A stretch of DNA of 64,000 nt from an uncultured Gemmatimonadales bacterium (GTDB lineage: Bacteria > Gemmatimonadota > Gemmatimonadetes > Longimicrobiales > RSA9). Positions within the stretch are counted from its first letter, which is position 1, and each line of letters opens with the position of its first letter. The notes below the pieces were generated by a model, which worked only from the letters and a program-made list of their open reading frames with translations, was not told the DNA's origin and did no database searches. The stretch is taken from the NCBI GenBank assembly GCA_963708135.1, contig OY970192.1, forward strand, positions 1,824,001 through 1,888,000, written 5' to 3'. The translations under genes and the position numbers were made by a program. This document shows, in pieces, positions 6,164-30,879 of the stretch.

Positions 6164-6274
6164 ACGGCCAGGTGCGCCCGGCAACCGCTACAGGCGCCAG
6201 GTCACACCCACATCCGATGCCGAATCGACCGGAACCTCCACCCAATCCCGCTCGCCCGCCCATCACCCCCACCC

Positions 6275-6304
6275 TTGACCCGGCGAAACCACCCCGCCTA
6301 TCCT
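6275..6304 (+). promoter_or_regulatory. Putative outward-facing sigma70 promoter in the oriIS region (present in all four copies)
   Basis: TTGACC-N18-TATCCT about 40 bp inside the right end. Confidence 0.55.
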
Positions 6305-6344
6305 ACCGAAAGCAGCCGAAACGGCGTTTGGATTTCCTATCCCT

Positions 6345-9032: not shown

Positions 9033-9262
9033 CACGATCCGTGCGTATTCCGGCCGAATCCGTCCAGTGATTCCGGTCGAAGCCGGCCACCGATTCCGGA
9101 CCATTCCGTCCACCCGTTCCGGAGCAATCCGTCCACCGATTCCGGGGATTCCGTCCTGCCATTCCGGCGGAATCCGTCCACCCTTGGGGGAGCGAAGCCG
9201 ACGCTGGATGACCTGAACCAGACCAGCCGCCACCTTGTGCGGGTCCTGAACCCGGAGGAGAG

Positions 9263-11581: not shown

Positions 11582-11704
11582 ACACGCCAGCGTCGCTTCG
11601 CTCCGACCGGGTGGACGGCATGGACCGGAACGGGTGGACGGCTTGCGCCGGAACCGCTGGACGGCTTCCTCCGGAACTCGTGGACGGAATCACCGGAATA
11701 GGCA

Positions 11705-11844
11705 CGATCCGCCCGGACGAGCTGAGAGCGGCGTTCACCGCCGCCGGTGGATGGAGTATCGCCGAGCTGAGCGCGGAGCGCATCGAGACGCGATTTCACG
11801 ACAACGGCGCACCGGCCTGGTTGGCGACCATCCAAAGGATTTAG
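11705..11844 (+). pseudogene. C-terminal fragment of a class I SAM methyltransferase (first few bases at 9033-9041)
   Basis: IRPDELRAAF...IETRFHDNGAPAWLATIQRI*; family recalled from similar C-termini. Confidence 0.55.
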
Positions 11845-11941: not shown

Positions 11942-12103
11942 TCAGTCCTGCGGCGCCATCGGCAGCTCGCGCACGTGCCGGCCCGTGAGCGCGAACCAGG
12001 CGTTGGTGAGCGCCGGGGCGGCGGGTGGGAGGCCCGGCTCGCCGACCCCCCCCGGGTCCTCGCGGCTGTCCACGATGTGCACGTCGATCTCGGGCGCCTC
12101 CAG
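11942..12103 (-). pseudogene. C-terminal fragment of a xanthine dehydrogenase-family (IorB-like) molybdopterin subunit
   Basis: EAPEIDVHIVDSREDPGGVGEPGLPPAAPALTNAWFALTGRHVRELP; cut exactly at the tmRNA-like block. Confidence 0.9.
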
Positions 12104-12128
12104 TGGAGCCGGCGGGAGTCGAACCCGC
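12104..12128 (-). repeat. 25-bp copy of the tmRNA 3' end (T-arm, acceptor strand, discriminator)
   Basis: GCGGGTTCGACTCCCGCCGGCTCCA identical to 30515-30539 and 23761-23785. Confidence 0.97.
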
Positions 12129-12288
12129 ACCAGATCCCCCACCCCCGGATCGCGATTCGCCAGTAACCGCAACAACTATGAGCGGTTTCGACCGTCGGGG
12201 TGTGGGCCGCCAGGTCCGGCGCTGACGGCCGGCGCGTTGTCCCGCTCCGCCATGGTGGTGCCCCGGGTCTCGTCGAACCCTTCGGGGC

Positions 12289-13869
12289 ATGCCCACCGTC
12301 GCACGCCCCCGATCCGTTTGGGTCCCGCCGCAGGCGCAGGCGCACCGCCCAGGGCACTCCGCAACGCCACCCGCCCAGGCCGCCGTTTACCGCCGACGAC
12401 GGCCCACGGCCACGCCCCTCTACCCCATCGTCCAGCACCACATCGAGGGCTTCCTGGCCCGGGCCGCCGAAGCCGATCCCTGGGGCGAGGGCGTGGCCGG
12501 CTGGGTCGAGGCCGACTTCCGGGCCTACCTCCGCTGCGGCATCCTGGCCCACGGCTTCGCCCGCGTCCGCTGTGACGACTGCGCCGCCGAGCGCCTCGTC
12601 GCCTTCTCCTGCAAGGGCCGCGGCGTCTGCCCCTCCTGCAACGCCCGCCGGATGGTCGAGGTCGCCGCGCACCTGAACAACGCCGTCCTGCCGCCGCTCC
12701 CGATCCGCCAATGGGTCCTCTCCGTCCCGAAGCGGATCCGCCCCTTCTTCCACCACGATCCCGCCCTTGCCGGCGCCGTGCTCCGGATCCTGCTCCGGGC
12801 CGTCCGCACCCGCCTGCGTCACGGCAGTCCCGGTGCCGGCCCGGACGCGCAGATCGGCGCCGTCTCCTTCCTCCACCGCTTCGGCTCCGCCCTCAATCCC
12901 CACTTCCACTTCCACGTCGTGGTTCTCAATGGCGTCTTCACCGGGACCGTGGACGGCGAGGTCCGCTTCGATGAGGCGACCCACTTTTCCGCCGACGACG
13001 CCTCCGCCCTCACGCCCATCCTCCAGCGCCGCATCCTGCGCCTCTTCCAACGCCGCGGCCTCCTCGAGGAGCACACGGTGAACGACATGCTCACCTGGCA
13101 GGGCACCGGCGGCTTCAGCCTCGACGCCTCCGTCCGCATCCACGGCGCCGACCGGGCCGGCCGCGAGCGCCTCCTCCGCTACTGCGCCCGGCCGCCGTTT
13201 GCCCTCGATCGCCTGCGGATCGAGCGTCAGTCCGGAGGGCGGGCCGACGACGACGCGGGGGTCCGCCGCGTGTTCTACCGACCCTCCCGGCCCACCTCCG
13301 ACGGACGCGCTCTCCTCGCCCTCTCACCCCTCCAGTTTCTGGAAGCACTTTCCCAGCTGATCCCGCCGCCCCGGGTTCACCGCCACCGCTACCACGGCGT
13401 TCTCGCCCCCAACGCACGGCTCCGGCCCCGGGTCGTCGCCCTCGAACGCGACGCAGAGGCCCACGCGGACGAAGCCCACGGCGAGGGGCCCGGGGTCCAC
13501 ACCTACAACGAGCCCGCTACCACCCTCACCGGCGCCGCCGCCCGCTCCCGCTGGGCCCAGCTCCTCGCCCGCATCTACGAGGTCTTCCCCCTCCGCTGCC
13601 CCGAGTGCGGCTCGCAGATGCGCATCCTCGCTTTCCTCACCGACCCCGCGCCCGTGGGCGCCATCCTCCGACATCTCGACCTGCCCCACACCACACCGCC
13701 GCTCTCCCCCGCACGCGCTCCACCCCAAGCCGCACTCGCGCTCGACGCCGAGCCCCTCGCACCCGCCGATGCCCTGCCCCGCGACGACTTCGACCAGACG
13801 CCCGCGTTCGATCCGGCTGACCCCGAGCCCCTACCCGAGCTCGACCTCGACCAGACCCGCGGCGCCTGA
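12289..13869 (+). CDS. IS91/ISCR-family rolling-circle transposase
   Basis: 526 aa, same motifs as copy 1. Confidence 0.95.
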   Translation: MPTVARPRSVWVPPQAQAHRPGHSATPPAQAAVYRRRRPTATPLYPIVQHHIEGFLARAAEADPWGEGVAGWVEADFRAYLRCGILAHGFARVRCDDCAAERLVAFSCKGRGVCPSCNARRMVEVAAHLNNAVLPPLPIRQWVLSVPKRIRPFFHHDPALAGAVLRILLRAVRTRLRHGSPGAGPDAQIGAVSFLHRFGSALNPHFHFHVVVLNGVFTGTVDGEVRFDEATHFSADDASALTPILQRRILRLFQRRGLLEEHTVNDMLTWQGTGGFSLDASVRIHGADRAGRERLLRYCARPPFALDRLRIERQSGGRADDDAGVRRVFYRPSRPTSDGRALLALSPLQFLEALSQLIPPPRVHRHRYHGVLAPNARLRPRVVALERDAEAHADEAHGEGPGVHTYNEPATTLTGAAARSRWAQLLARIYEVFPLRCPECGSQMRILAFLTDPAPVGAILRHLDLPHTTPPLSPARAPPQAALALDAEPLAPADALPRDDFDQTPAFDPADPEPLPELDLDQTRGA

Positions 13870-14052
13870 ACGGCCAGGTGCGCCCGGCAACCGCTACAGG
13901 CGCCAGGTCACACCCACATCCAATGCCGAATCGACCGGAACCTCCACCCAATCCCGCTCGCCCGCCCATCACCCCCACCCTTGACCCGGCGAAACCACCC
14001 CGCCTATCCTACCGAAAGCAGCCGAAACGGCGTTTGGATTTCCTATCCCTGA

Positions 14053-14241
14053 CGAGCTCACCGAGAGTATTTACATTTTGGATCGCCCAAGATATCGCCT
14101 CCACCTCAAACAAATGATGCGGGTGTTCTCAACAACTGGAAGCTAGAGGCAGTTAAGCAGCTTCAGACACTCATTGAAAAGGAATACGGAAAGACCTTGG
14201 AAACCCTTCTTATCCACCTTGCGAAGAGTTTGCATGAGTAG
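14053..14241 (+). pseudogene. Low-GC ORF tail truncated by the copy 3 oriIS
   Basis: Open frame ...NNWKLEAVKQLQTLIEKEYGKTLETLLIHLAKSLHE* with no visible start upstream. Confidence 0.5.
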
Positions 14242-14294
14242 CTATTCCTTCTATTGCCGCCTGAGGCAAAACACAAAATCATAGGGGAGGAAAC

Positions 14295-14681
14295 TTGAGC
14301 GATCGGGAGCAGGTTGTCGTAAAGACGTACAAGGGAAGGGAATCGAAAGCCGCAGAGCTGTTTCAAGAAGACGCAGCGAAAATGGCATTACAGGGTTACA
14401 TTCCGACATCGCAGAGTTGGGCTCCGGGTGCCTATGGGTGCGGCTCCTTCCTCTTCGCGCTGCTACTGTGCTTTGTCCTGATCGGATTCTTGGTTTTCAT
14501 TTACATGCTGCTGGTTAAGCCGGACGGAACACTTTCTGTAACGTACGAGCTGCGAATCGAAGTGCAAGGCTCGAAGCAATCTGCTCCAACCGCGGAAAAG
14601 ACATGCCCAAAGTGTGCGGAAAACGTAAAGGCGGCAGCTACTGTTTGTCGCTTCTGCGGACACAACTTCGAGCCGGCCTAA
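14295..14681 (+). CDS. Membrane protein with a C-terminal zinc ribbon; integron cassette ORF
   Basis: GGAGG RBS, TM segment, CPKCAENVKAAATVCRFCG; stop codon lies inside the attC inverse core. Confidence 0.85.
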   Translation: MSDREQVVVKTYKGRESKAAELFQEDAAKMALQGYIPTSQSWAPGAYGCGSFLFALLLCFVLIGFLVFIYMLLVKPDGTLSVTYELRIEVQGSKQSAPTAEKTCPKCAENVKAAATVCRFCGHNFEPA

Positions 14682-14736
14682 CAAGGCCATGCAGGCGACG
14701 TCCGAAGACGCACGCGCCTGATGGCCGGCGTTAGGG
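14676..14736 (+). other. Integron attC site (about 61 bp)
   Basis: Inverse core GCCTAAC, core GTTAGGG, inner GCCATGCAGGCG / CGCCTGATGGC pairing with one extrahelical G. Confidence 0.85.
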
Positions 14737-14894
14737 TTACAACAATGAAGCGTTCTCTCTGGAAACAAAGTCTTACCAAAAACTGGTGCCCTGCGTGGCC
14801 GTGCCCCGTTTGCCGAAAGGAGTCTGTAAAGCTTGTACCAAAATCACTTATATATAAAGAAAACGTCAATTCAAAACGAGCGCACAGCCATGAA

Positions 14895-16655
14895 CCTCCC
14901 GTATTCACCACGCGTAGGTTGAGCCGATTGAGCGCGTGATTTGGAATTCGGCGGCGGCGTGCGTGGCGCCCGGGCTGATTACGGGGACAGCCCCCCTTTC
15001 CCCCGGCGCGCCGCCGACGGCTCCGTGCTCCGATCGCTCCCCGCCCGAGAAGGCCTACGCTGGAGTGGGCAGGGCCAGGGCGGCGGGGGAGCCGCGGGCC
15101 GAGTAGCGCCGGCTCATTTCTCGCCAGAAGCGCTGCCACAGGTGCGCGCGGCCCGCGTCGATGACGAGCGTGAGTCGTCGGCCGCTCACCAGCACGCGTC
15201 CCGCCGCTTTGAGCACGAGTTGGCGGAAGCGCTGGCGGGTCATGACCTGACGTTCGCCGCACGAGACCAGTTCTGCGCCAGCTCTCAGCAGGTTGGCCGC
15301 GATGAGGCTCAGCAGCAGGCGCGCCTCGTTGGCGCCGAAGCTGTCGGTGTCGGGCTCGGGCGTGGCGACGCTCCGCCCGCGGTAGTGCTTCTTGGGCCGC
15401 GGCGCCGACGAGAGCGCCAGCGCCAGCGTGCTTTTCCAGTCCCCGAACTCCCGCTCGGCTTCTCCCCGCGCCCGGTAGCGCTCCAGCAGCGCCGGGCCGT
15501 CTACCTCTTCGGTGCTCGCGTTCGTGAGCAGGAAAAAATGGTCGAGGAACAGCTCCCCCTGCTCGTCCGAGCGCTCCAGCATCACGAGCACCACCCGGCG
15601 CGCATGGTCCCAGCGCCCGGCAGCATAGGTCAGCTCGTGCGTCCAGATCCGACCTTCGGCCGGCGGGTGTCCAGGCGGCCGCTTCAGGTACGGCGCCGCG
15701 AGTCTCTCCAGGCGTGCATTCCCACGCAGCCGGGCCACGTAGCGCACGCCCTCGTCCTCCAGCGTGGCCAGCAACTCGTTCTCCGGGAATCCCGCATCCA
15801 TGCGCAGCCACACCTGCTCCGCCTGCGTCTTCGCCCAGAGCACCGCGGGGACCACAAAGCCCAGCGCGCCTTGCGCCGTGTGCGCGTTTCCCTCTCGCAG
15901 CTCGGCCGCCAGGAAGTCTCCCAACTCCCAGCGCAGCACCAGCGGGTGGTAGCAGCAGCAGCCATAGTGCGCGTTCCACGAGCTGCCCGGCTGCAGCCCG
16001 TGCACTTCGACCGGCAGCGAATCCAGATCCAGCGTGACCTCCGCAACGCGCGGCGCGTTCCGGCCCCGCCGCCGCTCCGCACCCCGCAGCAGGAGCGTGG
16101 AAAGGCCCTGCCGGTTTCCCGGGTCGGCCAGCACCGCCAGGAGCCGCGACAGGGTTGGCTGAGAGGCCAGCCCGGAGGCCGCGCCCGCAGCCCCACCCCG
16201 CACCGGCGCCGTCCCCCGGCGCCGCGACACGGCCACGCGCAGCGCCGGATCGGCGCGCAGCAGGTCCGCATCCCGCTGGTCCGTCCATCCCTGCGCCAGC
16301 AGGAGCACCTGCGTGAGCATCAGCTCGAGGAAGTCGTGCGTGATCCGCGCGGGGTCGCGCGGGTCGTGCAGGTGGTGGTGGACCAGCGCCGGGAAGCCCA
16401 GCCGCTCCAGCAGCGCACGCAACAGCACCGCGCCCGCGTCCGAGGTCAGCCGCTCCGGTCGCGCCTCCACGCCCATCGAACGGTTGAAATCCAGCCGGAA
16501 AAGTGTACCTTGTTCTTCACCCATGGCGTGTTTGTCGTGTGGTCCGGAAGGATGGTTTGGTTTGCACCCCCATCTCACGGTCACACAGGCAGATGCGCCA
16601 TGGGCGCTTACGCCCTACACAACCCCTCCACTAACCCGCTCGTGAATACGGCAGG
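14895..16655 (-). mobile_element. IS1380-family element, copy A (1761 bp)
   Basis: IRs CCTCCCGTATTCAC / GTGAATACGGCAGG; 5-bp target duplication ATGAA. Confidence 0.95.
15055..16524 (-). CDS. IS1380-family DDE transposase
   Basis: LTSDAG, LASQPTLSR, LDLDS, WNAHYG..CYHPL, LRMDAGF, YRARGEAE. Confidence 0.95.
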   Translation of the reverse strand: MGEEQGTLFRLDFNRSMGVEARPERLTSDAGAVLLRALLERLGFPALVHHHLHDPRDPARITHDFLELMLTQVLLLAQGWTDQRDADLLRADPALRVAVSRRRGTAPVRGGAAGAASGLASQPTLSRLLAVLADPGNRQGLSTLLLRGAERRRGRNAPRVAEVTLDLDSLPVEVHGLQPGSSWNAHYGCCCYHPLVLRWELGDFLAAELREGNAHTAQGALGFVVPAVLWAKTQAEQVWLRMDAGFPENELLATLEDEGVRYVARLRGNARLERLAAPYLKRPPGHPPAEGRIWTHELTYAAGRWDHARRVVLVMLERSDEQGELFLDHFFLLTNASTEEVDGPALLERYRARGEAEREFGDWKSTLALALSSAPRPKKHYRGRSVATPEPDTDSFGANEARLLLSLIAANLLRAGAELVSCGERQVMTRQRFRQLVLKAAGRVLVSGRRLTLVIDAGRAHLWQRFWREMSRRYSARGSPAALALPTPA

Positions 16656-16684
16656 ATGAAGCATGGGACCCTGATTGGATTGAA

Positions 16685-18445
16685 CCTCCCGTATTCACCA
16701 CGCGTAGGTTGAGCCGATTGAGCGCGTGATTTGGAATTCGGCGGCGGCGTGCGTGGCGCCCGGGCTGATTACGGGGACAGCCCCCCTTTCCCCCGGCGCG
16801 CCGCCGACGGCTCCGTGCTCCGATCGCTCCCCGCCCGAGAAGGCCTACGCTGGAGTGGGCAGGGCCAGGGCGGCGGGGGAGCCGCGGGCCGAGTAGCGCC
16901 GGCTCATTTCTCGCCAGAAGCGCTGCCACAGGTGCGCGCGGCCCGCGTCGATGACGAGCGTGAGTCGTCGGCCGCTCACCAGCACGCGTCCCGCCGCTTT
17001 GAGCACGAGTTGGCGGAAGCGCTGGCGGGTCATGACCTGACGTTCGCCGCACGAGACCAGTTCTGCGCCAGCTCTCAGCAGGTTGGCCGCGATGAGGCTC
17101 AGCAGCAGGCGCGCCTCGTTGGCGCCGAAGCTGTCGGTGTCGGGCTCGGGCGTGGCGACGCTCCGCCCGCGGTAGTGCTTCTTGGGCCGCGGCGCCGACG
17201 AGAGCGCCAGCGCCAGCGTGCTTTTCCAGTCCCCGAACTCCCGCTCGGCTTCTCCCCGCGCCCGGTAGCGCTCCAGCAGCGCCGGGCCGTCTACCTCTTC
17301 GGTGCTCGCGTTCGTGAGCAGGAAAAAATGGTCGAGGAACAGCTCCCCCTGCTCGTCCGAGCGCTCCAGCATCACGAGCACCACCCGGCGCGCATGGTCC
17401 CAGCGCCCGGCAGCATAGGTCAGCTCGTGCGTCCAGATCCGACCTTCGGCCGGCGGGTGTCCAGGCGGCCGCTTCAGGTACGGCGCCGCGAGTCTCTCCA
17501 GGCGTGCATTCCCACGCAGCCGGGCCACGTAGCGCACGCCCTCGTCCTCCAGCGTGGCCAGCAACTCGTTCTCCGGGAATCCCGCATCCATGCGCAGCCA
17601 CACCTGCTCCGCCTGCGTCTTCGCCCAGAGCACCGCGGGGACCACAAAGCCCAGCGCGCCTTGCGCCGTGTGCGCGTTTCCCTCTCGCAGCTCGGCCGCC
17701 AGGAAGTCTCCCAACTCCCAGCGCAGCACCAGCGGGTGGTAGCAGCAGCAGCCATAGTGCGCGTTCCACGAGCTGCCCGGCTGCAGCCCGTGCACTTCGA
17801 CCGGCAGCGAATCCAGATCCAGCGTGACCTCCGCAACGCGCGGCGCGTTCCGGCCCCGCCGCCGCTCCGCACCCCGCAGCAGGAGCGTGGAAAGGCCCTG
17901 CCGGTTTCCCGGGTCGGCCAGCACCGCCAGGAGCCGCGACAGGGTTGGCTGAGAGGCCAGCCCGGAGGCCGCGCCCGCAGCCCCACCCCGCACCGGCGCC
18001 GTCCCCCGGCGCCGCGACACGGCCACGCGCAGCGCCGGATCGGCGCGCAGCAGGTCCGCATCCCGCTGGTCCGTCCATCCCTGCGCCAGCAGGAGCACCT
18101 GCGTGAGCATCAGCTCGAGGAAGTCGTGCGTGATCCGCGCGGGGTCGCGCGGGTCGTGCAGGTGGTGGTGGACCAGCGCCGGGAAGCCCAGCCGCTCCAG
18201 CAGCGCACGCAACAGCACCGCGCCCGCGTCCGAGGTCAGCCGCTCCGGTCGCGCCTCCACGCCCATCGAACGGTTGAAATCCAGCCGGAAAAGTGTACCT
18301 TGTTCTTCACCCATGGCGTGTTTGTCGTGTGGTCCGGAAGGATGGTTTGGTTTGCACCCCCATCTTACGGTCACACAGGCAGATGCGCCATGGGCGCTTA
18401 CGCCCTACACAACCCCTCCACTAACCCGCTCGTGAATACGACAGG
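16685..18445 (-). mobile_element. IS1380-family element, copy B
   Basis: Near-identical to copy A, with its own 5-bp target duplication TTGAA. Confidence 0.95.
16845..18314 (-). CDS. IS1380-family DDE transposase
   Basis: Same protein as copy A. Confidence 0.95.
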   Translation of the reverse strand: MGEEQGTLFRLDFNRSMGVEARPERLTSDAGAVLLRALLERLGFPALVHHHLHDPRDPARITHDFLELMLTQVLLLAQGWTDQRDADLLRADPALRVAVSRRRGTAPVRGGAAGAASGLASQPTLSRLLAVLADPGNRQGLSTLLLRGAERRRGRNAPRVAEVTLDLDSLPVEVHGLQPGSSWNAHYGCCCYHPLVLRWELGDFLAAELREGNAHTAQGALGFVVPAVLWAKTQAEQVWLRMDAGFPENELLATLEDEGVRYVARLRGNARLERLAAPYLKRPPGHPPAEGRIWTHELTYAAGRWDHARRVVLVMLERSDEQGELFLDHFFLLTNASTEEVDGPALLERYRARGEAEREFGDWKSTLALALSSAPRPKKHYRGRSVATPEPDTDSFGANEARLLLSLIAANLLRAGAELVSCGERQVMTRQRFRQLVLKAAGRVLVSGRRLTLVIDAGRAHLWQRFWREMSRRYSARGSPAALALPTPA

Positions 18446-19054
18446 TTGAATACACATTTACCGCCTGGGCGGAATGCGGACATCAATCTTGTAAACAGCA
18501 GTTTGCAATAGCTGGCGTAGGTGGCGTCTCACCTGAACAGACTGAGGACGGGTTTGAGTGGGAGGACTACTTCGCACCTCAAATCTGCCAACCCATGCCA
18601 GATATGTTGGATTTTCCAAAAAAATGTCCGGACGAAGTCAAAGAAGAACTCCGAGCGGCATTTGGGCTCTTCTGGTCGCACCAAGCTGCCTGTGCTGGTC
18701 GGATTCGCGTTTCCCTTGAGTGCCTGATGAACCACTTAGGTTAGGCATACCAAAACGAAAGAAAGATAAGAACGGAAAATATTTTGACTTATCTTATCTC
18801 TCCATGCGCGCATTGATGTCTTTGCAAAAGCAGAGCCGAATGTAGGTTCACATCTAATGGCGCTGAAATGGTTAGGAAACGCTGGAAGTCACAATGGAGA
18901 AGTCAGGAAAGACGACTTGCTGGATGCGTTCGAAATTATGGAGCATGCGCTAGTTGAGATCATAGACAAGCGCTCGGCCAAAGTTGCTGCCCTAGCCAAA
19001 AAAATTACAAAAAAACATGGTCGATAGAAACTCTACCTTGTCACTCAACCGGAC

Positions 19055-19447
19055 GTGTCACTCGTCGCGGGGCATCTGGAGGCGCACGTCCCGCCAGGCA
19101 CGCGGCTCACCCTGGCCGGCGACAGCTACGGCGCGCGCGCGGCCTCCATCGCGCCCGATCATTTTGCACTGCAGGCCGCCGACGCGGCGCTCCACGCCGT
19201 CTACGGCGTGCACCCGCTCGTAGTGCGCTCGGGCGGCACGGTGCCCATCGCCGAGCTCTTTCAGCGGCATCTCGGGTTGGACACCGTGTTCTTTTCCTTC
19301 AGCACGGCCGACGAGGACTTCCACGCTCCCAACGAGTTCTTCCGCGTGCACCGGCTGCACGAAGGGCTCGAGGCGTGGGCGCGCTACTGGGAGATTCTAG
19401 GCGAGCGGGGATCCAGCTCGCCAGGAGCGCCACCCCGGGGCGGCTGA
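19055..19447 (+). pseudogene. C-terminal fragment of an M20 dipeptidase
   Basis: RSGGTVPI, DEDFHAPNEFF; abrupt GC jump at the 5' junction. Confidence 0.85.
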
Positions 19448-19467
19448 AGGTTGAAGGAGCACGGCGG

Positions 19468-20460
19468 CTATCGGCTGACGAACTTCAGGAGCTGGCGCCC
19501 TCCGGTGTCGGCCAGGTAGACGACGCTGTCGCCCTGCACCGCGAGTGCGTGCGCCGTCACGACGTTGGCGGCCGTGGCCGGAATGTGGTCCACCTCGCGG
19601 AGATCGCGGTCGAGCATCACCACGAGGTCCGCCCCACCTTTCACCGCGAGGTACAGGCGCCCGCTCTCGCTCACGGCCACGTCGAAGACGCGCCCGGCGC
19701 TCCGGCCCGGCCGCCCCTCGCGCGGCCACTCCCCCAGATACGTGCCCGTGGTGTCGAACACCTGCAGACGCGCGTTCTCCCGGTCGGCCACGTAGACGCG
19801 GTCGAGTCCGCCCACCGCGATGCCGTGGGGGACGTGGAACTCACCTGGGTCTGCCCCCTCGTGGCCCCACTCGCGCACGAAGGCGCCCGTCCGGTCGAAG
19901 CGTGCCACTCGCGCGTTGATGTAACCGTCGCTCACGTAGAACGAGCCGTCGGCGCAGACGAACACGTCCGTCGGCTGATCGAAGTGCGTCGCGTCCCACC
20001 CCGGCGCGCGCCGGTGGCCGATCGTGCGAACGGGTGCGCCGTCGTGCGAGAACTCGAGCACCTGCTGCCGGCCGACGTCGGTCAGCCAGACGTTGTCGTC
20101 GGCGTCAACCGTCAGCGAATGCGGCACGAGGAACATCCCGGCGCCCCAGGAGTGCAGCAGCGCTCCGGTGACCGCGTCGAGCTCGAGCACCGTCGGCGCG
20201 GTGATTGGCTGCGTGGCCGTCGGCTCGAAGCTTCGCCCCGCCCGGTGGAACAGCAGCACATGACCGTGCGAGTCCAGCGCCACGCCCGAGACTTCACCGA
20301 GGCGCAGGCCGGGGGCAAGGCGTGGCCAACCCTCCACGCGCTTCCAGCGGGAAGTCGGTGCGCCCGACGCTGCGTGGCCCGGCTGCGGCGGTCGCGTAGG
20401 GCCATGCGGCCCGAGGGCCAGACATCCGGCGAGCAGAAGAGCTTTGCGGCTGCCAGGCAT
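19468..20460 (-). CDS. NHL-repeat peptidyl-alpha-hydroxyglycine alpha-amidating lyase-like protein
   Basis: Signal peptide; FLVPHSLTVD, FDQPTDV, VSDGYINARV, VADRENARLQVF. Confidence 0.9.
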   Translation of the reverse strand: MPGSRKALLLAGCLALGPHGPTRPPQPGHAASGAPTSRWKRVEGWPRLAPGLRLGEVSGVALDSHGHVLLFHRAGRSFEPTATQPITAPTVLELDAVTGALLHSWGAGMFLVPHSLTVDADDNVWLTDVGRQQVLEFSHDGAPVRTIGHRRAPGWDATHFDQPTDVFVCADGSFYVSDGYINARVARFDRTGAFVREWGHEGADPGEFHVPHGIAVGGLDRVYVADRENARLQVFDTTGTYLGEWPREGRPGRSAGRVFDVAVSESGRLYLAVKGGADLVVMLDRDLREVDHIPATAANVVTAHALAVQGDSVVYLADTGGRQLLKFVSR

Positions 20461-20563
20461 CGGTCAGAGTCTCCCTTGCAGTACGTCAACGACGGCGGGC
20501 GGCGCGCATTCGCGCTCGACCACGCAGGGATGGGCGTGATCCGCGTCCAGCTCTTCGGTCACG

Positions 20564-20745
20564 CTAGCGACTTCCCATTTCGAGTTTGCGGCGCAGCTCC
20601 TCACGCCAGTTGAGCGCGACCACGATGTCGCGGTCGCGCTGGGCCGCGTCGCGCACGACGACGAAGCCCTTGCCGTCCGGGCGCACATCGAACCCGCCCA
20701 GCAGGCAGCTGAGGTTCGCGAACCGGTCCGTGCCGGCAGCATTGT
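20564..20745 (-). pseudogene. Probable C-terminal tail of a TolB-repeat (Ser/Thr kinase-type) protein
   Basis: FDVRPDGKGFVVVR...IVVALNWREELRRK* pattern; no 5' part. Confidence 0.55.
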
Positions 20746-20975
20746 CAATATGGGCCGAACGACCTCGGTCGGAACAGGGCGTTCCTCCTTGCTTCGCTCG
20801 CCCCAGGCCGCGTCGCGTCAAATGCTGTGACCGGTACGGCGAGATCGTCACCGGGATCCTGACGGCCGCGCACGGTACCGCATGAGGAGGCAAGGATCAT
20901 TCGACCGGGAATCCGATGGCGGCGGTTCGGCTCGATCGCCAGGGCGCGCGCGCGGCTGCCCGCCGCAGCGCGATC

Positions 20976-21013
20976 TTGCACTGCGGTAATCACCATGGTA
21001 ATATGACCATGGA
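20976..21013 (+). promoter_or_regulatory. Toxin-antitoxin promoter with two ACCATGG operator-like repeats
   Basis: TTGCAC-N17-TAATAT; CCATGG palindromes flank the -10 box. Confidence 0.65.
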
Positions 21014-21033
21014 CACCATTCGAGAGCTTTATT

Positions 21034-21345
21034 ATGGCGAAGAAGAAGATCTCGGAAGCAGCCGTGGCGCCCTTCGCGCCAACCGGGGCGCCGCACACCG
21101 TGCAGGCCAGCACGTTCAAGGCGACGTGTCTCGAATTGATGGACGAAATCGAAGCGAGCGGATTCGAGGTCGTCGTCACCAAGCACGGCCGCCCCGTGGT
21201 GAAGGTGGGACCGGTGGAGCCGAGCGTCCCTTCTCCGTTGGGGTTTCTGCGCGGGACCGTCGTGGATGAGGGAGACTTGGTGAGCCCCGACCACGACGCA
21301 TGGAGCGAGGCGGTGGCGGACCCGCTCCACACGGATCGGAAGTAG
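21034..21345 (+). CDS. Phd/YefM-family antitoxin
   Basis: ASTFKATCLELMDEI...VVVTKHGRPVVKV. Confidence 0.9.
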   Translation: MAKKKISEAAVAPFAPTGAPHTVQASTFKATCLELMDEIEASGFEVVVTKHGRPVVKVGPVEPSVPSPLGFLRGTVVDEGDLVSPDHDAWSEAVADPLHTDRK

Positions 21346-21776
21346 TGGCGACCGTGCGCGCGGTGCGCGAGCGGCCCCAGCGCCGGCCGCGGCGCGCGCG
21401 CGCACCAAAGCGCGTGGCGGGTTCGGTGCTCTGGCGCGCGGTGGAGGAACCGGAGCGCGAAGACGCCCTGCTCCTGGACACGCACGTGTGGCTGTGGACG
21501 CTCGCCGGCACCACGGAGCGACTGGCCGCGCAGGCGGTCGCGCTCGTGCAGTCAGCCGCGGCCGCCGGCCGCCTCTACGTGAGCGACATTTCCTTCTGGG
21601 AGGTGTCGCTCAAGGCATCGAAACGGAAGCTGACGCTGGTGATCGATCCCACCCTCTGGCTCGAGCGCGCCGCGCGGGCACCGGGCATTCGCGCGCTGCC
21701 GCTCGCGCGCGAGGTGCTGATCCAGAGCACGCGCCTTCCGGGCGCTATGCACGGCGATCCCGCCGACCGCATGCTC
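21345..21776 (+). pseudogene. PIN/VapC toxin, C-terminally truncated
   Basis: LLLDTHVWLW, SFWEV, HGDPADRML, then unrelated sequence. Confidence 0.85.
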
Positions 21777-21861
21777 TGCAGTGGACATTGCGCGCGGAGG
21801 ATAAGGTAGGCGCCACCTACAGGCTCACGGACACGAATCCCGTCCGCAGACATTAGCGAAA

Positions 21862-21893
21862 GCCCCCCGACCAACGGTCGGGGGGTTTTTTTT
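21862..21893. terminator. Intrinsic terminator hairpin, likely bidirectional
   Basis: CCCCCCGACC-AAC-GGTCGGGGGG followed by T8. Confidence 0.85.
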
Positions 21894-21905
21894 AAAAAAT
21901 ATTTT

Positions 21906-22811
21906 CAGTACTGTCCGGTTAAGCTGAGATGATGATGCCGTAACGGATTGCTACGTGGTGCGTTACGACGTTTTGGTTGCCGCACCGATTTGAACTTCGC
22001 TGCTGCGCCGCTATCCTGCCCGGACCCCCCGGCCGGAGTGGCGCATGAATCCCGGAAGCACGGTTTTCTCACAGGTGATGGCCCACGCATCTCGCTTCGC
22101 GCTCGATCGGTGCATCCGCCGCTACCACGGCAACCGGAGGGTCCGACGTTTCTCGTGTCGGGACCAGTTCCTCGCCATGGCCTTTGCCCAGCTCACCTAC
22201 CGGGAGAGCCTGCGGGACCTCGAGGCCACCCTCGGGGCGGCCCCCGAGAAGCTGTACCATCTTGGCTTCCGTTCGCCGCTCTCTCGCAGCACGCTCGCCG
22301 ATGCGAACGAGAATCGCGACTGGCGCATCTACGCCGATTTCGCTCAACGCCTGATCGCAGACGCGCGTCGGCTCTACGCCGACGACACGTTGGGGATCGA
22401 GCTCACGAACACCGTCTACGCGCTGGATTCCACCACGATCGACCTGTGTTTGGACCAACGACGTCGCGCTGCCCGCCGTTACCGTGGCCGAGCTCTACCG
22501 CCTGCGGTGGCAGATCGAGCTCTTCTTCAAATGGATCAAGCAGCACCTCAGGATCAAGCGCTTCTTCGGCACGAGCGCGAACGCTTTGCGCACGCAGATC
22601 TGGATCGCGATCAGCGTTTACGTCCTCGTCGCGATCGTCCGCAAGCGGCTCCGGATCGAGCGCGAACTCTACACAATTCTACAGATCCTGAGCGTCTATG
22701 CGTTCGAGAAAGCCCCTCTCGCACAAGTACTTACGCGTTCGGCCTACACCCCCGAAGTCCCCTCCGATCGTAACCAGTTGTCGCGCTTCAACTTATAACC
22801 GGACACTACTG
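21906..22811 (+). mobile_element. Internally deleted IS4-family element (906 bp)
   Basis: IRs CAGTACTGTCCGGTTA / TAACCGGACACTACTG; 9-bp target duplication AAATATTTT; transposase N-part (22045 to about 22452) joined out of frame to the C-part YRLRWQIELFFKWIKQ. Confidence 0.93.
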
Positions 22812-22826
22812 AAATATTTTCTAAAT

Positions 22827-23507
22827 TTACTTTTCTTCCTCGCCTTTTTCTTTCTTTTCTTTCTTCTCTTCCTTTTCTTCGCCTTCCTCGCCTTCGGCTT
22901 CCTCTTTGCCTTCCTTCTTCACGCCCTCAACGGCTTCTTCGAGATCTACCTCGGTCGGCTGGGCCAATTCTGCTTCGAGCTCTTCTTCGGACTTCGGCGG
23001 CTGGACGGCGGCGACGGTCATCTCCGGATCATCCACCAGAATCTCCACCTTACTGTGGTCCACCGGCAAATCCTTGACGCGGATGGCGTCCTCGAAATTT
23101 TTCAAAGCCGAAATATCCACGACAATCTCCGAAGGCAGGTCGCCCGGCAAGCTCTCGACTTCGACTTCATAAAGAGTCGGCACGAAAGTGCCCTGCAGTT
23201 CTTTGACCGCCGGAGATTCGCCGACGAATTCGATCGGCACGGTGGCCGTCAGTTTTTCCGCCATATTCACCTGGTAAAAATCCACGTGCGTAATCTGGCC
23301 TCGGGTGATGTGCTTCTGAATGTCTTGGATCAAGACCTTGACCGGCTCGGTCTCCCCCACTTGCAGGCCGACGATAGTGCTCTCGCCGGCGTCACGATAG
23401 ATTTTTTCAAAATCACCCGCCGGCACGGACAAGGAACGCGCCTCGATCCCGTGCCCGTACAGAACCCCGGGGATATAGCCGGCGTGGCGAAGTCCTTTCG
23501 CTTTTTC
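22827..23507 (-). pseudogene. rplY: 5'-truncated ribosomal protein L25/TL5 (Ctc) of foreign origin
   Basis: LRHAGYIPGVLYG, HVDFYQV, VPIEFVGESPAVK, LPSEIVVDISAL, acidic/Lys tail; lower GC than host genes. Confidence 0.9.
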
Positions 23508-23598
23508 TGGGCGCGCGCCGGCGGACCTGGCAGCGCCTCGGCGGACCCTCGCGCGTGCAGCACCGCCGAGCGGCCCTTGGTGGCGCCGGGCGGCCTCC

Positions 23599-23760
23599 TC
23601 AGTCCTGCGGCGCCATCGGCAGCTCGCGCACGTGCCGGCCCGTGAGCGCGAACCAGGCGTTGGTGAGCGCCGGGGCGGCGGGTGGGAGGCCCGGCTCGCC
23701 GACCCCCCCCGGGTCCTCGCGGCTGTCCACGATGTGCACGTCGATCTCGGGCGCCTCCAG
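23599..23760 (-). pseudogene. Second copy of the molybdopterin oxidoreductase C-terminal fragment
   Basis: Matches 11942-12103. Confidence 0.9.
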
Positions 23761-23785
23761 TGGAGCCGGCGGGAGTCGAACCCGC
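23761..23785 (-). repeat. 25-bp copy of the tmRNA 3' end
   Basis: Identical to 30515-30539. Confidence 0.97.
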
Positions 23786-23945
23786 ACCAGATCCCCCACC
23801 CCCGGATCGCGATTCGCCAGTAACCGCAACAACTATGAGCGGTTTCGACCGTCGGGGTGTGGGCCGCCAGGTCCGGCGCTGACGGCCGGCGCGTTGTCCC
23901 GCTCCGCCATGGTGGTGCCCCGGGTCTCGTCGAACCCTTCGGGGC

Positions 23946-25526
23946 ATGCCCACCGTCGCACGCCCCCGATCCGTTTGGGTCCCGCCGCAGGCACAGGCGC
24001 ACCGCCCAGGGCACTCCGCAACGCCACCCGCCCAGGCCGCCGTTTACCGCCGACGACGGCCCACGGCCACGCCCCTCTACCCCATCGTCCAGCACCACAT
24101 CGAGGGCTTCCTGGCCCGGGCCGCCGAAGCCGATCCCTGGGGCGAGGGCGTGGCCGGCTGGGTCGAGGCCGACTTCCGGGCCTACCTCCGCTGCGGCATC
24201 CTGGCCCACGGCTTCGCCCGCGTCCGCTGTGACGACTGCGCCGCCGAGCGCCTCGTCGCCTTCTCCTGCAAGGGCCGCGGCGTCTGCCCCTCCTGCAACG
24301 CCCGCCGGATGGTCGAGGTCGCCGCGCACCTGAACGACGCCGTCCTGCCGCCGCTCCCGATCCGCCAATGGGTCCTCTCCGTCCCGAAGCGGATCCGCCC
24401 CTTCTTCCACCACGATCCCGCCCTTGCCGGCGCCGTGCTCCGGATCCTGCTCCGGGCCGTCCGCACCCGCCTGCGTCACGGCAGTCCCGGTGCCGGCCCG
24501 GACGCGCAGATCGGCGCCGTCTCCTTCCTCCACCGCTTCGGCTCCGCCCTCAATCCCCACTTCCACTTCCACGTCGTGGTTCTCGATGGCGTCTTCACCG
24601 GGACCGTGGACGGCGAGGTCCGCTTCGATGAGGCGACCCACTTTTCCGCCGACGACGCCTCCGCCCTCACGCCCGTCCTCCAGCGCCGCATCCTGCGCCT
24701 CTTCCAACGCCGCGGCCTCCTCGAGGAGCACACGGTGAACGACATGCTCACCTGGCAGGGCACCGGCGGCTTCAGCCTCGACGCCTCCGTCCGCATCCAC
24801 GGCGCCGACCGGGCCGGCCGCGAGCGGCTCCTCCGCTACTGCGCCCGGCCGCCGTTTGCCCTCGATCGCCTGCGGATCGAGCGTCAGTCCGGAGGGCGGG
24901 CCGACGACGACGCGGGGGTCCGCCGCGTGTTCTACCGACCCTCCCGGCCCACCTCCGACGGACGCGCCCTCCTCGCCCTCTCACCCCTCGAGTTTCTGGA
25001 AGCACTTTCCCGACTGATCCCGCCGCCCCGGGTTCACCGCCACCGCTACCACGGCGTTCTCGCCCCCAACGCACGGCTCCGGCCCCACGTCGTCGCCCTC
25101 CAACGCGACGCAGAGGCCCACGCGGACGAAGCCCACGGCGAGGGGCCCGGGGTCCACACCTACAACGAGCCCGCTACCACCCTCACCGGCGCCGCCGCCC
25201 GCTCCCGCTGGGCCCAGCTCCTCGCCCGCATCTACGAGGTCTTCCCCCTCCGCTGCCCCGAGTGCGGCTCGCAGATGCGCATCATCGCTTTCCTCACCGA
25301 CCCCGCGCCCGTGGGCGCCATCCTCCGACATCTCGACCTGCCCCACACCACACCGCCGCTCTCCCCCGCACGCGCTCCACCCCAAGCCGCACTCGCGCTC
25401 GACGCCGAGCCCCTCGCACCCGCCGATGCCCTGCCCCGCGACGACTTCGACCAGACGCCCGCGTTCGATCCGGCTGACCCCGAGCCCCTACCCGAGCTCG
25501 ACCTCGACCAGACCCGCGGCGCCTGA
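23946..25526 (+). CDS. IS91/ISCR-family rolling-circle transposase
   Basis: 526 aa with intact motifs. Confidence 0.95.
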   Translation: MPTVARPRSVWVPPQAQAHRPGHSATPPAQAAVYRRRRPTATPLYPIVQHHIEGFLARAAEADPWGEGVAGWVEADFRAYLRCGILAHGFARVRCDDCAAERLVAFSCKGRGVCPSCNARRMVEVAAHLNDAVLPPLPIRQWVLSVPKRIRPFFHHDPALAGAVLRILLRAVRTRLRHGSPGAGPDAQIGAVSFLHRFGSALNPHFHFHVVVLDGVFTGTVDGEVRFDEATHFSADDASALTPVLQRRILRLFQRRGLLEEHTVNDMLTWQGTGGFSLDASVRIHGADRAGRERLLRYCARPPFALDRLRIERQSGGRADDDAGVRRVFYRPSRPTSDGRALLALSPLEFLEALSRLIPPPRVHRHRYHGVLAPNARLRPHVVALQRDAEAHADEAHGEGPGVHTYNEPATTLTGAAARSRWAQLLARIYEVFPLRCPECGSQMRIIAFLTDPAPVGAILRHLDLPHTTPPLSPARAPPQAALALDAEPLAPADALPRDDFDQTPAFDPADPEPLPELDLDQTRGA

Positions 25527-26069
25527 ACGGCCAGGTGCGCCCGGCAACCGCTACAGGCGCCAGGTCACACCCACATCCGATGCCGAATCGACCGGAACCT
25601 CCACCCAATCCCGCTCGCCCGCCCATCACCCCCACCCTTGACCCGGCGAAACCACCCCGCCTATCCTACCGAAAGCAGCCGAAACGGCGTTTGGATTTCC
25701 TATCCCTCCGGCTTCCTCCACATCGGGGCGTGGCAATCATCCGTTCACGCGAAGCCGCAAAGCGCCGAAGGCAGTACACCGGTGTGTTGGGAACCTGCGT
25801 ACCGACGGCCCGTCCTGTGGCATGGATCCCAGCCATACCCGCCGAGTTCGGTTTTCTAGGTTGCGGGATTCGCGCCTTCGGCCCGTGCTGCCTTCGCGTG
25901 AACCGAGTGGAAGGACGCCCCCGAAGCCCGCGGTTGGCCGAGGGATGTCGCTCCGCCTCCTCCGCCACTCCGCGCGAACCGCGGATGTGTGAAGCGGGAC
26001 GAAGCGGGAACATGGATGCGTGCGCCGCACGGTTGCATCCTTGGCGGGACCCACTTCCGGAGAATCTTC

Positions 26070-28706: not shown

Positions 28707-30203
28707 TCGTGGGCGGGCCAGCGGAGGGCCGCAGCGGGAGAGCCGGCCCCCCGCTCCCCCCTGCCGGGCACCGGTGCCGGTCGGTCGCCGGTCCGCCGCG
28801 GCGATCCAGCTGCCGCGCCAGCTGCGGGTTGGGCAATCCGGACGTGCCGTCGATCCTCGCCGGCAGCTCCTTGACGGGCCGTCCGAGCAGCCGATAGCCG
28901 CCGTAGAAATCGTTCGTGTACACCGTCCGCGGCCAGGGGCGGGAGCGGATGCGCGCGGCCTCCACGCGCCACGCGCGCGCCGCGTACCCCCGACCCTCCC
29001 GATGGGTCGCGAGCGCCTCGCGCGCGCCGGCCGCCGCGCGCAGGCCGAAGAGGGCGACACACGCGCCCAGCGCCAGCGCGAGACCCGGCAGCGGCGGCGT
29101 TCCGCGGACGCCGCCCATCCGGCGGCGGCGACCCCGACGAGCAGGTACAGCCCCGGCAGCAGCGGCGAGAGAAGGCGCGCATCCATCGGCGTGGCTGCGT
29201 CCACCACCGAGATGGATACCACCAGGAAGAGCAGGTACGCTGCCCCGAACGCGGTCCAGATCGCCAGCTCACCCCGGTCGCAGGAGCGCCAGCGGCGGCG
29301 CACGCCCACGATCAGCCATGCGGCCACGAGGGCGCAGACGGCGGCCATGAGCAGGTGCGGGGACGGATCGGGGACGAGCCAGAACGCCACGGTGCGCATC
29401 CCTTCCAGCACCTGCGTCGCGCCCAGCGGATGCCACGCCAGCGTCCGGTTCGTGGCGCTGCCGCCCGCCAGCCGATTCCGCGCGAGCCAGAGCGCGAGCG
29501 GGAGCGCGCTCACCACCGTCCAGGTGAGCGCCTCGCCCAGGCGCCGTCGCCACGGCCACCCCGGCCGCAGCAGCAGGACCGCTCCCCCGACGCCGATCAC
29601 GACCACGCCCGCGTACCTGAGCAGCACGCCCGCCGCCGCGAAGGCCGCGCCTGCAAGCAATGCCTTGCGATTGCCGTTCGCGGCTAGCCGCAGGAAGTAC
29701 AGGGCCCACACCAGCACCAGCAACGCGGGCACATCCGTCCAGGCGCGTGTGCTGAGCGCGAGCGCCGGACCGCCGAACGCGAGCAACCCGGCTGAGATCA
29801 GCCCCGCCAGCCGTGAGCGGGCCGTGCGCAGCGCCACCCACCCAACGGACCCCACCAGGGCCGCGAACGCCACGATCGCCAGGCAGCGCGCGCCTGCCTC
29901 CACCGGCAGGCTCAGCATCAGCAAGGCGGCGAGCAGGGACGAATAGAGCGGCGGGAAGTGCGTCACCGGCGCAGGAACACCGTTCGGCGCGATCGCGATG
30001 AAGCCGTTACCGCCAGCGAGGTGCCTGGCAGCGTCGAGATAGATGATGCTGTCGGGCGTGAGGCCGATCCCGGAGGACGTCACGAATAGCGCGGCCAGCG
30101 CGGCCAGAATCACAAGCGCGAACAACGCGGCGTAGTAACTCCGGTCGGCGCGTGCCGCGGCGACGTGATCGCCCCCCGGATGAGGGGGGGACAGGGTAGG
30201 CAC
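28678..30203 (-). CDS. Polytopic membrane protein (GT-C/ArnT-like), frameshift near 29100
   Basis: LTPDSIIYLDAA, HFPPLYS, LLRYAG, many TM segments; C-terminus in a second frame. Confidence 0.6.
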
Positions 30204-30468
30204 GATGTCCTCGGGGCAGGGCTGGATCGCGCACGGCCGTAAAGCCGAGTACGAAGAGGTCCGGGCGTGTGCCGTCCGGGTCCTTAGCAATTTCGCGCTA
30301 CCGGCTTCGCACCGTCAACGGTTCAGTGGATGGAAGGCCCGCCGACAAGGCCATGGCATGCCGCTCCCCGGAGCCTGCGGCACCACCGTCCCCGCCACAC
30401 GGCCGTCCTCGAGGATCCGGACGCAGAACCCACAAGACGGGGACGCGGGTGAGACGGAGTCGAGCGCC

Positions 30469-30509
30469 GGAAAACGAACGCGCCCGGCGATCCGAAGATC
30501 ACCGGGCGC
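30469..30509 (-). terminator. Hairpin downstream of ssrA
   Basis: GCGCCCGG-CGATC-CGAA-GATCA-CCGGGCGC followed by GTTCGTTTT on the minus strand. Confidence 0.65.
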
Positions 30510-30514
30510 TTCAA

Positions 30515-30879
30515 TGGAGCCGGCGGGAGTCGAACCCGCGTCCGCGAATCGATCCCTCAGTGCATCTACGTGCGTAGTCCACCGTTCTCAGTTTCTCGCT
30601 CCCTCATCGGCCGGTGGACGGCCCCGTCGGGAACCAGCCTCGCTGTGTCTCATCCGGCCGCGGCAAGGCGGCACGACCGGACCAGCCCGATTTGTCGATG
30701 CCTCTGGTCACGCCTCGGGCCCGGCCCGTCCAGAGACAGGTTGCGAAAGGTCAGACCTTACGCAGCCAGCGCCATGTTTGAGTTGGCACTTGTGATGTTT
30801 TCCCGCTGGTTTTACGAGGGCACGGGTCCTCGGCACGCGACACCGACTTCACGAAACACGTCGAAACCAGGTCGGCCCC
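30515..30879 (-). ncRNA. ssrA: tmRNA; tag reading frame ANSNMALAA* at 30787-30758; CCA not encoded
   Basis: 5' GGGGCCGACCTGGTTTCGAC, 3' GCGGGTTCGACTCCCGCCGGCTCCA, alanine G3:U pair, tag ending in LAA. Confidence 0.97.

Follow-up and report, generated by a model that had tools for sequence, protein, structure and literature searches.

A tmRNA 3'-end copy beside IS91-family elements downstream of ssrA, read as a probable attachment-site scar carried by one-ended transposition

A stretch of 64,000 nt (the window) from an uncultured Gemmatimonadales bacterium (assembly GCA_963708135.1, contig OY970192.1, positions 1,824,001 to 1,888,000) carries a complete ssrA gene, which encodes transfer-messenger RNA (tmRNA), together with several insertion sequence (IS) copies of the IS91 family. 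Two of these IS copies stand beside exact duplicates of the last 25 nt of ssrA, and the origin of these short blocks is the subject of this report. The genome that holds the window, called G000 here, is a single 5.4-Mb contig, and it was compared with its relatives (numbered in the same way, G0xx) in a set of 73 genomes from the same bacterial family, G000 included. Four of the genomes in use (G015, G016, G019 and G085) are unpublished, and these are included in the family tallies of blocks and of the transposase domain Y2_Tnp. Feature coordinates are collected in Table 1.

Table 1. Features of the window, numbered from its first letter; the repeated segments that hold IS91-family copies 3 and 4 are called units 3 and 4.
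Feature	Position	Strand	Details
IS91-family copy 0, outside the window	-9607 to -7239 (window numbering)		98% identical to copy 3 back to 11703 (whole-genome comparison)
IS91-family copy 1	4480..6344	+	transposase open reading frame (ORF) 4583-6163, 526 aa; no block and no 69-bp arm
IS91-family copy 2, partial	7766..9032	+	complete oriIS-type right end at 9032
IS21-family element (istA, istB)	9042..11704	+	Pfam; ends TG..CA; 7-bp target duplication CGATCCG at 9035-9041 and 11705-11711
Methyltransferase 3' fragment	11707..11844	+	full-length gene found only next to copy 0; shows the extent of donor flank in unit 3
Molybdopterin oxidoreductase 3' fragment	11942..12103	-	53 codons and stop, cut at the block; also at 23599-23760 and beside copy 0
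Displaced 25-bp ssrA 3'-end copy, unit 3	12104..12128	-	exact match
69-bp class A arm beside the block	12129..12197	+	hairpin AACCGC..GCGGTT; also at 23786-23854
IS91-family copy 3	12198..14050	+	transposase ORF 12289-13869, 526 aa; left end GGGGTGTGGGCC, right end ...GGATTTCCTATCCCT (oriIS-like)
Ribosomal protein L25/Ctc gene, 5'-truncated, lower G+C	22827..23507	-	Ribosomal_L25p from profile position 11, plus TL5_C
Displaced 25-bp ssrA 3'-end copy, unit 4	23761..23785	-	exact match
IS91-family copy 4	23855..25707	+	transposase ORF 23946-25526, 526 aa
Terminator-like hairpin directly 3' of ssrA	30481..30510	-	sequence reading; flanks compared
Native block, last 25 nt of ssrA	30515-30539	- (gene strand)	
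ssrA (tmRNA gene), complete	30515..30879	-	ARAGORN; Rfam RF00023 at 30512-30879, 166 bits, model 1-374 of 374

The block sequence TGGAGCCGGCGGGAGTCGAACCCGC occurs exactly at three sites in the window (12104-12128, 23761-23785 and 30515-30539), each time on the + strand, and it is the reverse complement of the last 25 nt of ssrA because that gene lies on the - strand. When up to three mismatches were allowed, the same three matches were found in the window, and none of 100 dinucleotide-preserving shuffles contained any match. A fourth copy lies in G000 9.2 kb to the left of the window. Parsed by eye, the block consists of a T-stem strand of 5 nt, a loop of 7, the second T-stem strand of 5, an acceptor strand of 7 and the discriminator base. 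Similarity to ssrA continues 12-13 nt past the discriminator (12091-12128 versus 30503-30539, 92% over 38 nt), and alignments of 34-37 nt that take in the 13 nt to the left of the block are 92-95% identical to native ssrA flanks in relatives (G002, G003 and G006). All three block-bearing IS copies (0, 3 and 4) have in common a single junction between the block and the 3' end of an oxidoreductase gene, whose last 53 residues are encoded directly to the left of the block. This fragment finds the MoCoBD paralogues of G000 itself by tblastn (E = 2e-9 and 6e-4) and has an orthologue in G023. The missing 5' part of the gene was not found beside any oriIS end, as all PF02738 and PF20256 matches in the genome are more than 400 kb away from the window.

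The transposase ORFs of the three full copies in the window match the Pfam families Y2_Tnp (PF04986, E = 2.4e-23 to 4.8e-23) and Zn_Tnp_IS91 (PF14319, E of about 2e-17), and the translation contains an HFHFH motif and cysteine clusters as well as a weak match to the TrwC relaxase (Pfam, E = 1.2e-5). Six of the seven Y2_Tnp matches in G000 fall inside 35 kb, and the copies lie downstream of ssrA and are co-oriented. By self-comparison, the part common to copies 1, 3 and 4 covers 4492-6344, 12198-14050 and 23855-25707, respectively, with the start of copy 1 moving to near 4480 when one additional unit of a G-rich repeat is counted. Copy 1 begins with GTGTGGGCTTGGGTGTGGGCC immediately after the start of a DUF488-like gene (named by eye). 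Partial copy 2 contains an internal direct duplication of 242 bp (7766-8007 = 8213-8454), and its ORF is rearranged as a result. No terminal inverted repeats were seen on reading the sequence at the IS limits.

The two sides of the element behave differently. All five right ends stop at the same base, ...GGATTTCCTATCCCT, about 180 bp downstream of the transposase stop codon, and are followed by unrelated flanks (CGCA, TCGA, CACG, GACG and CCGG); this constant end presumably resembles the published oriIS consensus sequences. The left limits are of four kinds, namely near 4480 for copy 1, 23508 for unit 4, 9033/11705 for unit 3, and a separate limit for copy 0. Copies 3 and 4 lie in a repeat of 2200 bp at 99.3% identity (11852-14050 = 23508-25707), and copies 0, 3 and 4 have at least 252 bp in common to the left of the block, where the oxidoreductase fragment lies. 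Beside copy 0, this fragment is preceded by a complete, convergent methyltransferase gene (Methyltransf_25/TPMT by Pfam, L083:8855-10531). Unit 3 retains about 146 bp from the 3' end of that gene, whereas unit 4 begins 8 bp past its stop codon, directly against the truncated L25 gene. Thus, none of the three derived copies in G000 (1, 3 and 4) ends at the block.

A further junction is revealed when the IS21-family element to the left of unit 3 and one copy of its CGATCCG duplication are read out. The oriIS end of partial copy 2 (9032) then stands directly against the left end of unit 3, and the IS21 element proves to have inserted 2 bp from this joint. The joint itself lies in a short microhomology (CCCT|CA, versus CCCA|CA in copy 0). 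The IS21 element has two copies elsewhere in G000 that are 100% identical across the compared 705 bp of its right end, and a second IS21-family element (istA/istB) lies at 656-2772 on the - strand.

A sequence-only reading of this locus had described an IS91/ISCR-type rolling-circle element, clustered downstream of ssrA, with an exact and co-oriented 25-bp block that runs from the T-arm to the discriminator, and an oxidoreductase gene cut at that block. These descriptions are borne out by the domain matches, the grouping of the copies within 35 kb, the three exact block sites, the parse of the block and the tblastn matches of the fragment, and the suggestion that the block is an att-type (attachment-site) fragment is likewise supported. 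Two other statements did not survive. Copies 3 and 4 were said to begin with the block, whereas their repeat runs 252 bp farther left, and identity with ssrA was said to stop cleanly at the discriminator, whereas the similarity continues beyond it.

The explanation that we regard as probable is that the block is an att-type scar of a cassette at ssrA, that this cassette houses the IS, and that the scar has been carried along by one-ended rolling-circle transposition. The block and the 69 bp to its right would form the distal attachment-type end of a small cassette like those stacked at the ssrA 3' end across the family, and the IS91-family element would sit directly inside this end with its transposase reading towards ssrA. 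The original copy of the block might have been made by a site-specific recombinase acting in trans. Directly shown are the anatomy of the repeats, how blocks are distributed in the family, and that block and IS occur apart from each other. In G000, the element would have been active, starting at its constant oriIS-like right end and often missing the stop at its own left end. The length of the carried left flank differs from copy to copy because the element would so often fail to stop, and the flank would include the 69-bp arm, the block, the piece of the oxidoreductase gene and, in one case, a piece of the methyltransferase gene. If the flank was carried along by missed termination, then the block is cargo of one-ended transposition and not a terminus. 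A constant oriIS end, variable upstream ends and a head-to-tail joint together form the signature of one-ended transposition of the IS91 type, and a circular or tandem rolling-circle product would be expected to leave a joint like that between copy 2 and unit 3. According to one report, elements of the IS91 family fail to terminate at terIS in 1-14% of events, or in about half when they rely on TnpA alone, and produce oriIS-terIS circles (PMC13181058).

Copies of the IS that lack the block bear directly on this explanation. Relatives G032 and G012 carry copies (G032:C3 and G012:C1) at 92-95% identity that begin in the G-rich repeat where copy 1 begins, with left limits that agree to within about 8 bp, and whose left flanks are unrelated and hold no block. 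In a contig from a hypersaline-lake metagenome, the match starts at 12198 and is preceded by 32 unrelated letters, and a transposase search of genome contigs gave one related locus, on a 2.8-kb contig, with no block. Among more distant homologues, no block was found in the 420 bp upstream of the ORF at any of the four alignable loci (G082:C44, G074:C209, G024:C281 and G016:C108), nor was its 21-mer core found with up to four mismatches at any of 11 distant-homologue loci; what is said of G016:C108 and the G015 loci depends on the unpublished genomes. The proposal that the block is the terIS, or left end, of the element is therefore not upheld, as copy 1, the copies in G032 and G012, and all 11 distant-homologue loci do without it. 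A second IS91 subgroup is also present in relatives (G009:C22:158919-163695, G010:C89:519-2088 and G016:C462:555-2084; Y2_Tnp at 1e-62 to 1e-69). There, the transposase domain has an ORF for a tyrosine recombinase on its strand, about 500 bp away, and none of these loci is near a block.

The reverse arrangement, in which the block and its arm are found where there is no IS, is also seen. The class A arm, the 69-bp sequence next to the block, occurs at nine sites in four of the 73 genomes (three in G000, one in G012, three in G025 and two in G077), and the block adjoins it at all nine. The class A units are intact in G000 alone, and those of G012 and G025 are decayed. The left part of the IS follows at six of the nine sites. 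At G077:C5, the arm and the G-rich repeat are succeeded by a fragment that begins in the middle of a glycosylase-like gene (named by eye), and at G025:C136 by other sequence, with no IS body in either place; at G077:C221 the contig ends. These two IS-free sites likewise speak against the terIS proposal. At G025:C54, sequence on the far side of the block aligns over 213 nt, at 86% identity, with what natively flanks ssrA in that genome, which is the layout of a distal att site. Depth in three unrelated metagenomes is high across 12372-14051 and low across 12120-12203, which hints weakly that the arm is not part of the common IS. A scan of metagenomes for the arm itself (pattern AACCGCAACNNNNATGAGCGGTT) returned four loci, all of which were rejected as chance matches in unrelated coding sequence.

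The IS left end in its full form, GGGTGTGGGCTTGGGTGTGGG (window 4480-4500, and loci in G012, G025, G032 and G077), contains four G-triplets separated by 3-nt loops, a motif of the G-quadruplex type that is reduced to one unit in copies 0, 3 and 4. The hairpin of the class A arm forms in a DNA fold with a z-score of only -1.43, and the block and end regions folded no more stably than shuffled sequences (z = -1.43, -0.66 and -0.24). The arms of other cassette classes, compared by eye, have a short motif (ATCG..ATT.CCAG.AAC) at about equal distance from the block and, some 90 nt from the block, a tandem 8-mer of either the GGTGTGGG or the TGTTACCC type. Such 8-mers resemble the G-rich IS end and are present in cassettes that lack the IS.

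Blocks are widespread in the family, with or without this transposase. When the 21-mer TGGAGCCGGCGGGAGTCGAAC was searched with at most one mismatch, it was found in 62 of the 73 genomes, 21 of which have at least two copies, with a maximum of 17 in G095; the reversed control pattern gave no match in any genome. Thirteen of the 21 multi-block genomes have no Y2_Tnp match, and although three of these (G024, G025 and G077) contain IS remnants detectable by DNA or protein searches, the other 10 show no trace of the IS with these queries. One example is G081, which is 95% complete and has four blocks and no Y2_Tnp match. Overall, Y2_Tnp is present in 8 of the 21 multi-block genomes versus 14 of the other 52, which is a weak difference among related genomes. 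That blocks bound many cassettes in genomes with no Y2_Tnp match also speaks against the block as the terIS of the element.

Wherever contigs allow the arrangement to be seen, the family blocks are co-oriented behind ssrA and bound units of 0.15-13 kb that contain only cargo (G095:C124 and C128 [L062, L063], G081:C7 [L064] and G077:C5 [L065], with further loci in G025, G089 and G091). The cargo-only cassettes seen in G081, G095 and G077 form part of this series, and the cargo includes AbiE toxin-antitoxin genes, RND and CDF efflux systems, penicillin amidase, TonB receptors and a beta-lactamase-fold protein, among others. At most displaced blocks, identity with ssrA ends after ...GTCGAAC, and the left flank is usually a terminator-like hairpin. 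In G095 and G081, native or most distal blocks are flanked by a hairpin of the type found directly 3' of ssrA in the window. In the four genomes that have both on one contig (G000, G032, G012 and G025), pieces of the IS lie downstream of ssrA in the same orientation. Some blocks occur as pairs only 143-156 bp apart (G005:C119, G065:C4, G024:C114, G088:C148, G095:C124/C128 and G089:C3; L058-L063 and L069). Between the paired blocks lie a terminator hairpin and part of the block in inverted orientation (..GGCCGACTCCCGCC..), and the whole looks like a non-coding miniature cassette.

Several observations weigh against the view that the block is an attachment scar carried as cargo. Among them are two independent gene cuts in the middle of ORFs, 0-3 nt from the discriminator, one in the oxidoreductase gene of G000 and the other in a queG-like gene for an Fe-S/HEAT protein in G012:C2 (named by eye). 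An ordinary distal att site is expected to precede the old ssrA flank, not a truncated gene. The last 11-15 nt of the cut genes do resemble the native terminator arm of ssrA (CGGGCGCCTCCAG versus the native CGGGCGCTTCAA or ..TTCCA in G000, and 9 of 15 positions, by eye, in G012), and this likeness allows, but does not prove, an ordinary origin by recombination at a secondary site or by microhomology-mediated deletion from the old flank. In addition, the block, the arm and the left part of the IS have co-diverged, with 76-87% identity between three genera, which hints at a functional unit. We read this, together with the shared orientation of IS pieces behind ssrA, as the mark of an IS that settled long ago in one cassette lineage and travels with the cassette. 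The border between arm and IS is not clean either, because cassettes that have no IS carry the G-rich repeat GGGTGTGGG..GGGTGTGGG equally far from the block. A simple insertion with contiguous flanks is seen at none of the copies in the window, and for that reason the one-ended mechanism is put forward here only by inference. Furthermore, the right flanks of the copies do not match the target tetranucleotides published for the IS91 family.

The search for a recombinase that could have made the cassettes also counts against this view. As the sequence-only reading had stated, the window has no integrase, with no PF00589 or PF00239 gene present; the nearest PF00589 match is 341 kb away. No PF00589 match was found on the block-bearing contigs of nine genomes (G000 and eight others), the 150 matches listed, of 341 in the family, include none closer than 100 kb to a block, and a search for PF00239 in five genomes gave a single, distant match. 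The small ORFs of the class B cassettes of G095 contained no recombinase-like domain in Pfam searches with E up to 1. The alternative that the element homes to ssrA with the help of a recombinase acting in trans is compatible with the scar explanation, and it is unproven because no such recombinase has been found. G000 has extra tyrosine recombinases at 818963 and 829145, which would be candidates.

The competing idea that the block is a working, or second, terminus of the IS91-like element appears quite improbable. In detail, the HUH enzyme would recognise and cut the T-arm hairpin of the bottom strand together with 8 nt (CGGCTCCA), so that block, arm and IS move as a unit that could also recognise the same sequence at ssrA. 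Relaxases nick a few nucleotides 3' of a hairpin, and the TrwC match of the transposase can be set beside this behaviour. Both mid-ORF cuts, which fall within 3 nt of the discriminator, adjoin an IS-bearing class A unit, and the co-divergence in three genera and the co-oriented placement of IS pieces downstream of ssrA in four of four genomes would also fit. These points have to be set against the derived copies of G000, none of which is bounded at the block, and against the loci examined, none of which has an oriIS end abutting it. The homologues that lack a block, the frequency of block-bounded cassettes in genomes such as G081 and the unexceptional fold energies are further difficulties, and the two mid-gene junctions that remain lie within 11-13 nt that resemble the native terminator arm and thus permit an ordinary origin. 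The earlier claim of a tRNA-like HUH terminus is accordingly not sustained. In a more far-reaching version, which we consider very doubtful, the IS91-like enzyme would act on the tmRNA-type sequence with the T-arm hairpin and its 8 nt as a relaxase-like nic site. Block, arm and IS would then constitute a site-specific rolling-circle element for the ssrA 3' end, and the cargo-only cassettes would be non-autonomous relatives moved in trans. If true, the locus would offer both the first HUH transposon with a tRNA-like end and the first island family targeting tRNA-type genes (tDNA) that uses neither a tyrosine nor a serine recombinase.

Another possibility, rather unlikely in our estimate, accepts the block as an att scar and holds that the three copies of fragment, block and IS arose without the transposase, whether by segmental duplication, by homologous recombination between IS copies or by a site-specific recombinase acting in trans. 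Recombinogenic repeats abound in the region (two IS21-family elements, a tandem DDE element, a DUF4372-type IS and 4.5 IS91-family copies), contiguous target flanks are present at no copy, and in the island GIsul2 an integrase moves an ISCR2-sul2 unit through att sites (PMC9376610). However, unequal crossing-over produces equal ends, whereas the right end here is constant to the base and the left ends differ. The joint between the oriIS end and the left end of unit 3 is predicted by a rolling-circle product, and units 3 and 4 do not have a block on each side, which an att-by-att event would need. An assembly artefact, in which near-identical copies and their junctions result from the mis-assembly of a repeat-rich region, would be an extremely unlikely source of this pattern. 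The genome apparently comes from a soil-metagenome run, and only short run contigs can be placed on the stretch. Contigs of four sequencing runs were placed, including those of one soil-metagenome run that has 0.83 of the stretch's words, but they are fragmentary and none covers a whole IS copy. On the other side, the assembly consists of one 5.4-Mb contig, the copies are set apart by differences of 0.3-5% and by an indel and have their own flanks, and the architecture recurs in independent genomes of three other genera. No contig listed from the four runs joins 14050 (right end, ...CCTATCCCT) back to 12104 (block, TGGAGCCGG) or to any left end, bearing in mind that rare circles are not visible in contigs. 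No RNA run sharing words with the stretch was listed.

Domain content and end behaviour both place the element in the IS91/ISCR family. Like IS91, IS801, IS1294 and the ISCR elements, it combines a Y2_Tnp and Zn_Tnp_IS91 transposase with two unlike ends, of which one is sharp and constant about 180 bp past the stop codon. The variable upstream end with co-mobilised flank and the head-to-tail oriIS joint also agree with the behaviour of the family as given in PMC13181058. It departs from these relatives in several respects. Its oriIS flanks are not the published targets CTTG, GTTC and GTCC (PMC13181058), its Pfam scores are modest (E of about 1e-23, versus 1e-62 to 1e-69 for the other subgroup in relatives), it lacks orf121, and its left end is a G-rich direct repeat with no obvious palindrome.

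The array of blocks, in turn, is of the ssrA tandem-island kind. In Dehalococcoides, tandem islands are bounded by a 20-bp ssrA repeat and some have no integration genes (PMC3146451), and Islander uses displaced target fragments as markers of island ends (PMC4383910). The present array resembles such islands in its 21-25-bp copies of the tmRNA 3' end, which share one orientation and lie within tens of kb on the downstream side of an intact ssrA, and in its cargo-only units between repeats, some of which have no integration genes, as described for cis-mobilisable islands (PMC3146451). In contrast to those islands, no serine or tyrosine recombinase was found at any array here, and the distal repeats of G000 adjoin a truncated gene instead of the old ssrA flank.

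Two other systems offer partial parallels. In GIsul2, a CR2-sul2 unit related to ISCR2 is moved by the island integrase through att sites (PMC9376610). An IS91/ISCR-type element lies beside an att copy of an integrative element in both cases, and such an att site could mobilise the element without the help of the element's transposase. For GIsul2, mobility was experimentally demonstrated and an integrase gene is present, whereas no integrase is known here; moreover, the target is guaA there and ssrA here, and the unit in G000 is not flanked by att copies on both sides. Tycheposon-type islands of Prochlorococcus contain partial tRNA and tmRNA copies scattered through them (bioRxiv 10.1101/2020.12.28.424599), and there, as may be the case here, repeated integration at one tDNA pushes older elements outward and leaves partial targets and degenerate elements behind. 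In contrast, those islands carry tyrosine recombinases and are not known to involve an element of the IS91 type. A literature search found no HUH transposon described with a tmRNA-type end, and the evidence says that the element in G000 is not one either.

If the scar explanation is correct, the locus provides a natural example, outside the clinical Proteobacteria, of an ISCR-like element that captures and multiplies flanking DNA by missed termination, with the head-to-tail joint preserved. It also indicates how an element that rides on a site-specific cassette system can gather at one chromosomal hot spot. Beyond the IS, the family contains dozens of cargo-only units with related arms, each delimited by the final 21 nt of the tmRNA gene, and no recombinase has been found for them. 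The enzyme that moves these cassettes would explain the collection of accessory genes in a little-studied soil lineage.

Other features of the region deserve brief mention. The segment between units 3 and 4 (14051-23507) has a lower G+C content at both ends and is probably foreign DNA. It encodes a UPF0547 protein, an NHL-repeat protein, a PIN-domain protein, a DUF4372-type IS and the truncated L25/Ctc protein, which has a Lys/Glu-rich tail. Within it lie two near-perfect tandem elements with DDE_Tnp_1_4 transposases (14891-16660 and 16681-18450), 20 bp apart and 99.8% identical over 1770 bp. In synteny searches of the ssrA downstream flank by tblastx, only low-identity matches driven by composition were obtained, and the original downstream neighbour of ssrA could not be placed for this reason. 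On the 5' side of ssrA, a gene for a GAF-GGDEF diguanylate cyclase is found both in the window (30915-32171, - strand) and in G081 (L064:301-2406), so that the 5' side of the locus is conserved between these two genomes while its 3' side is in flux.

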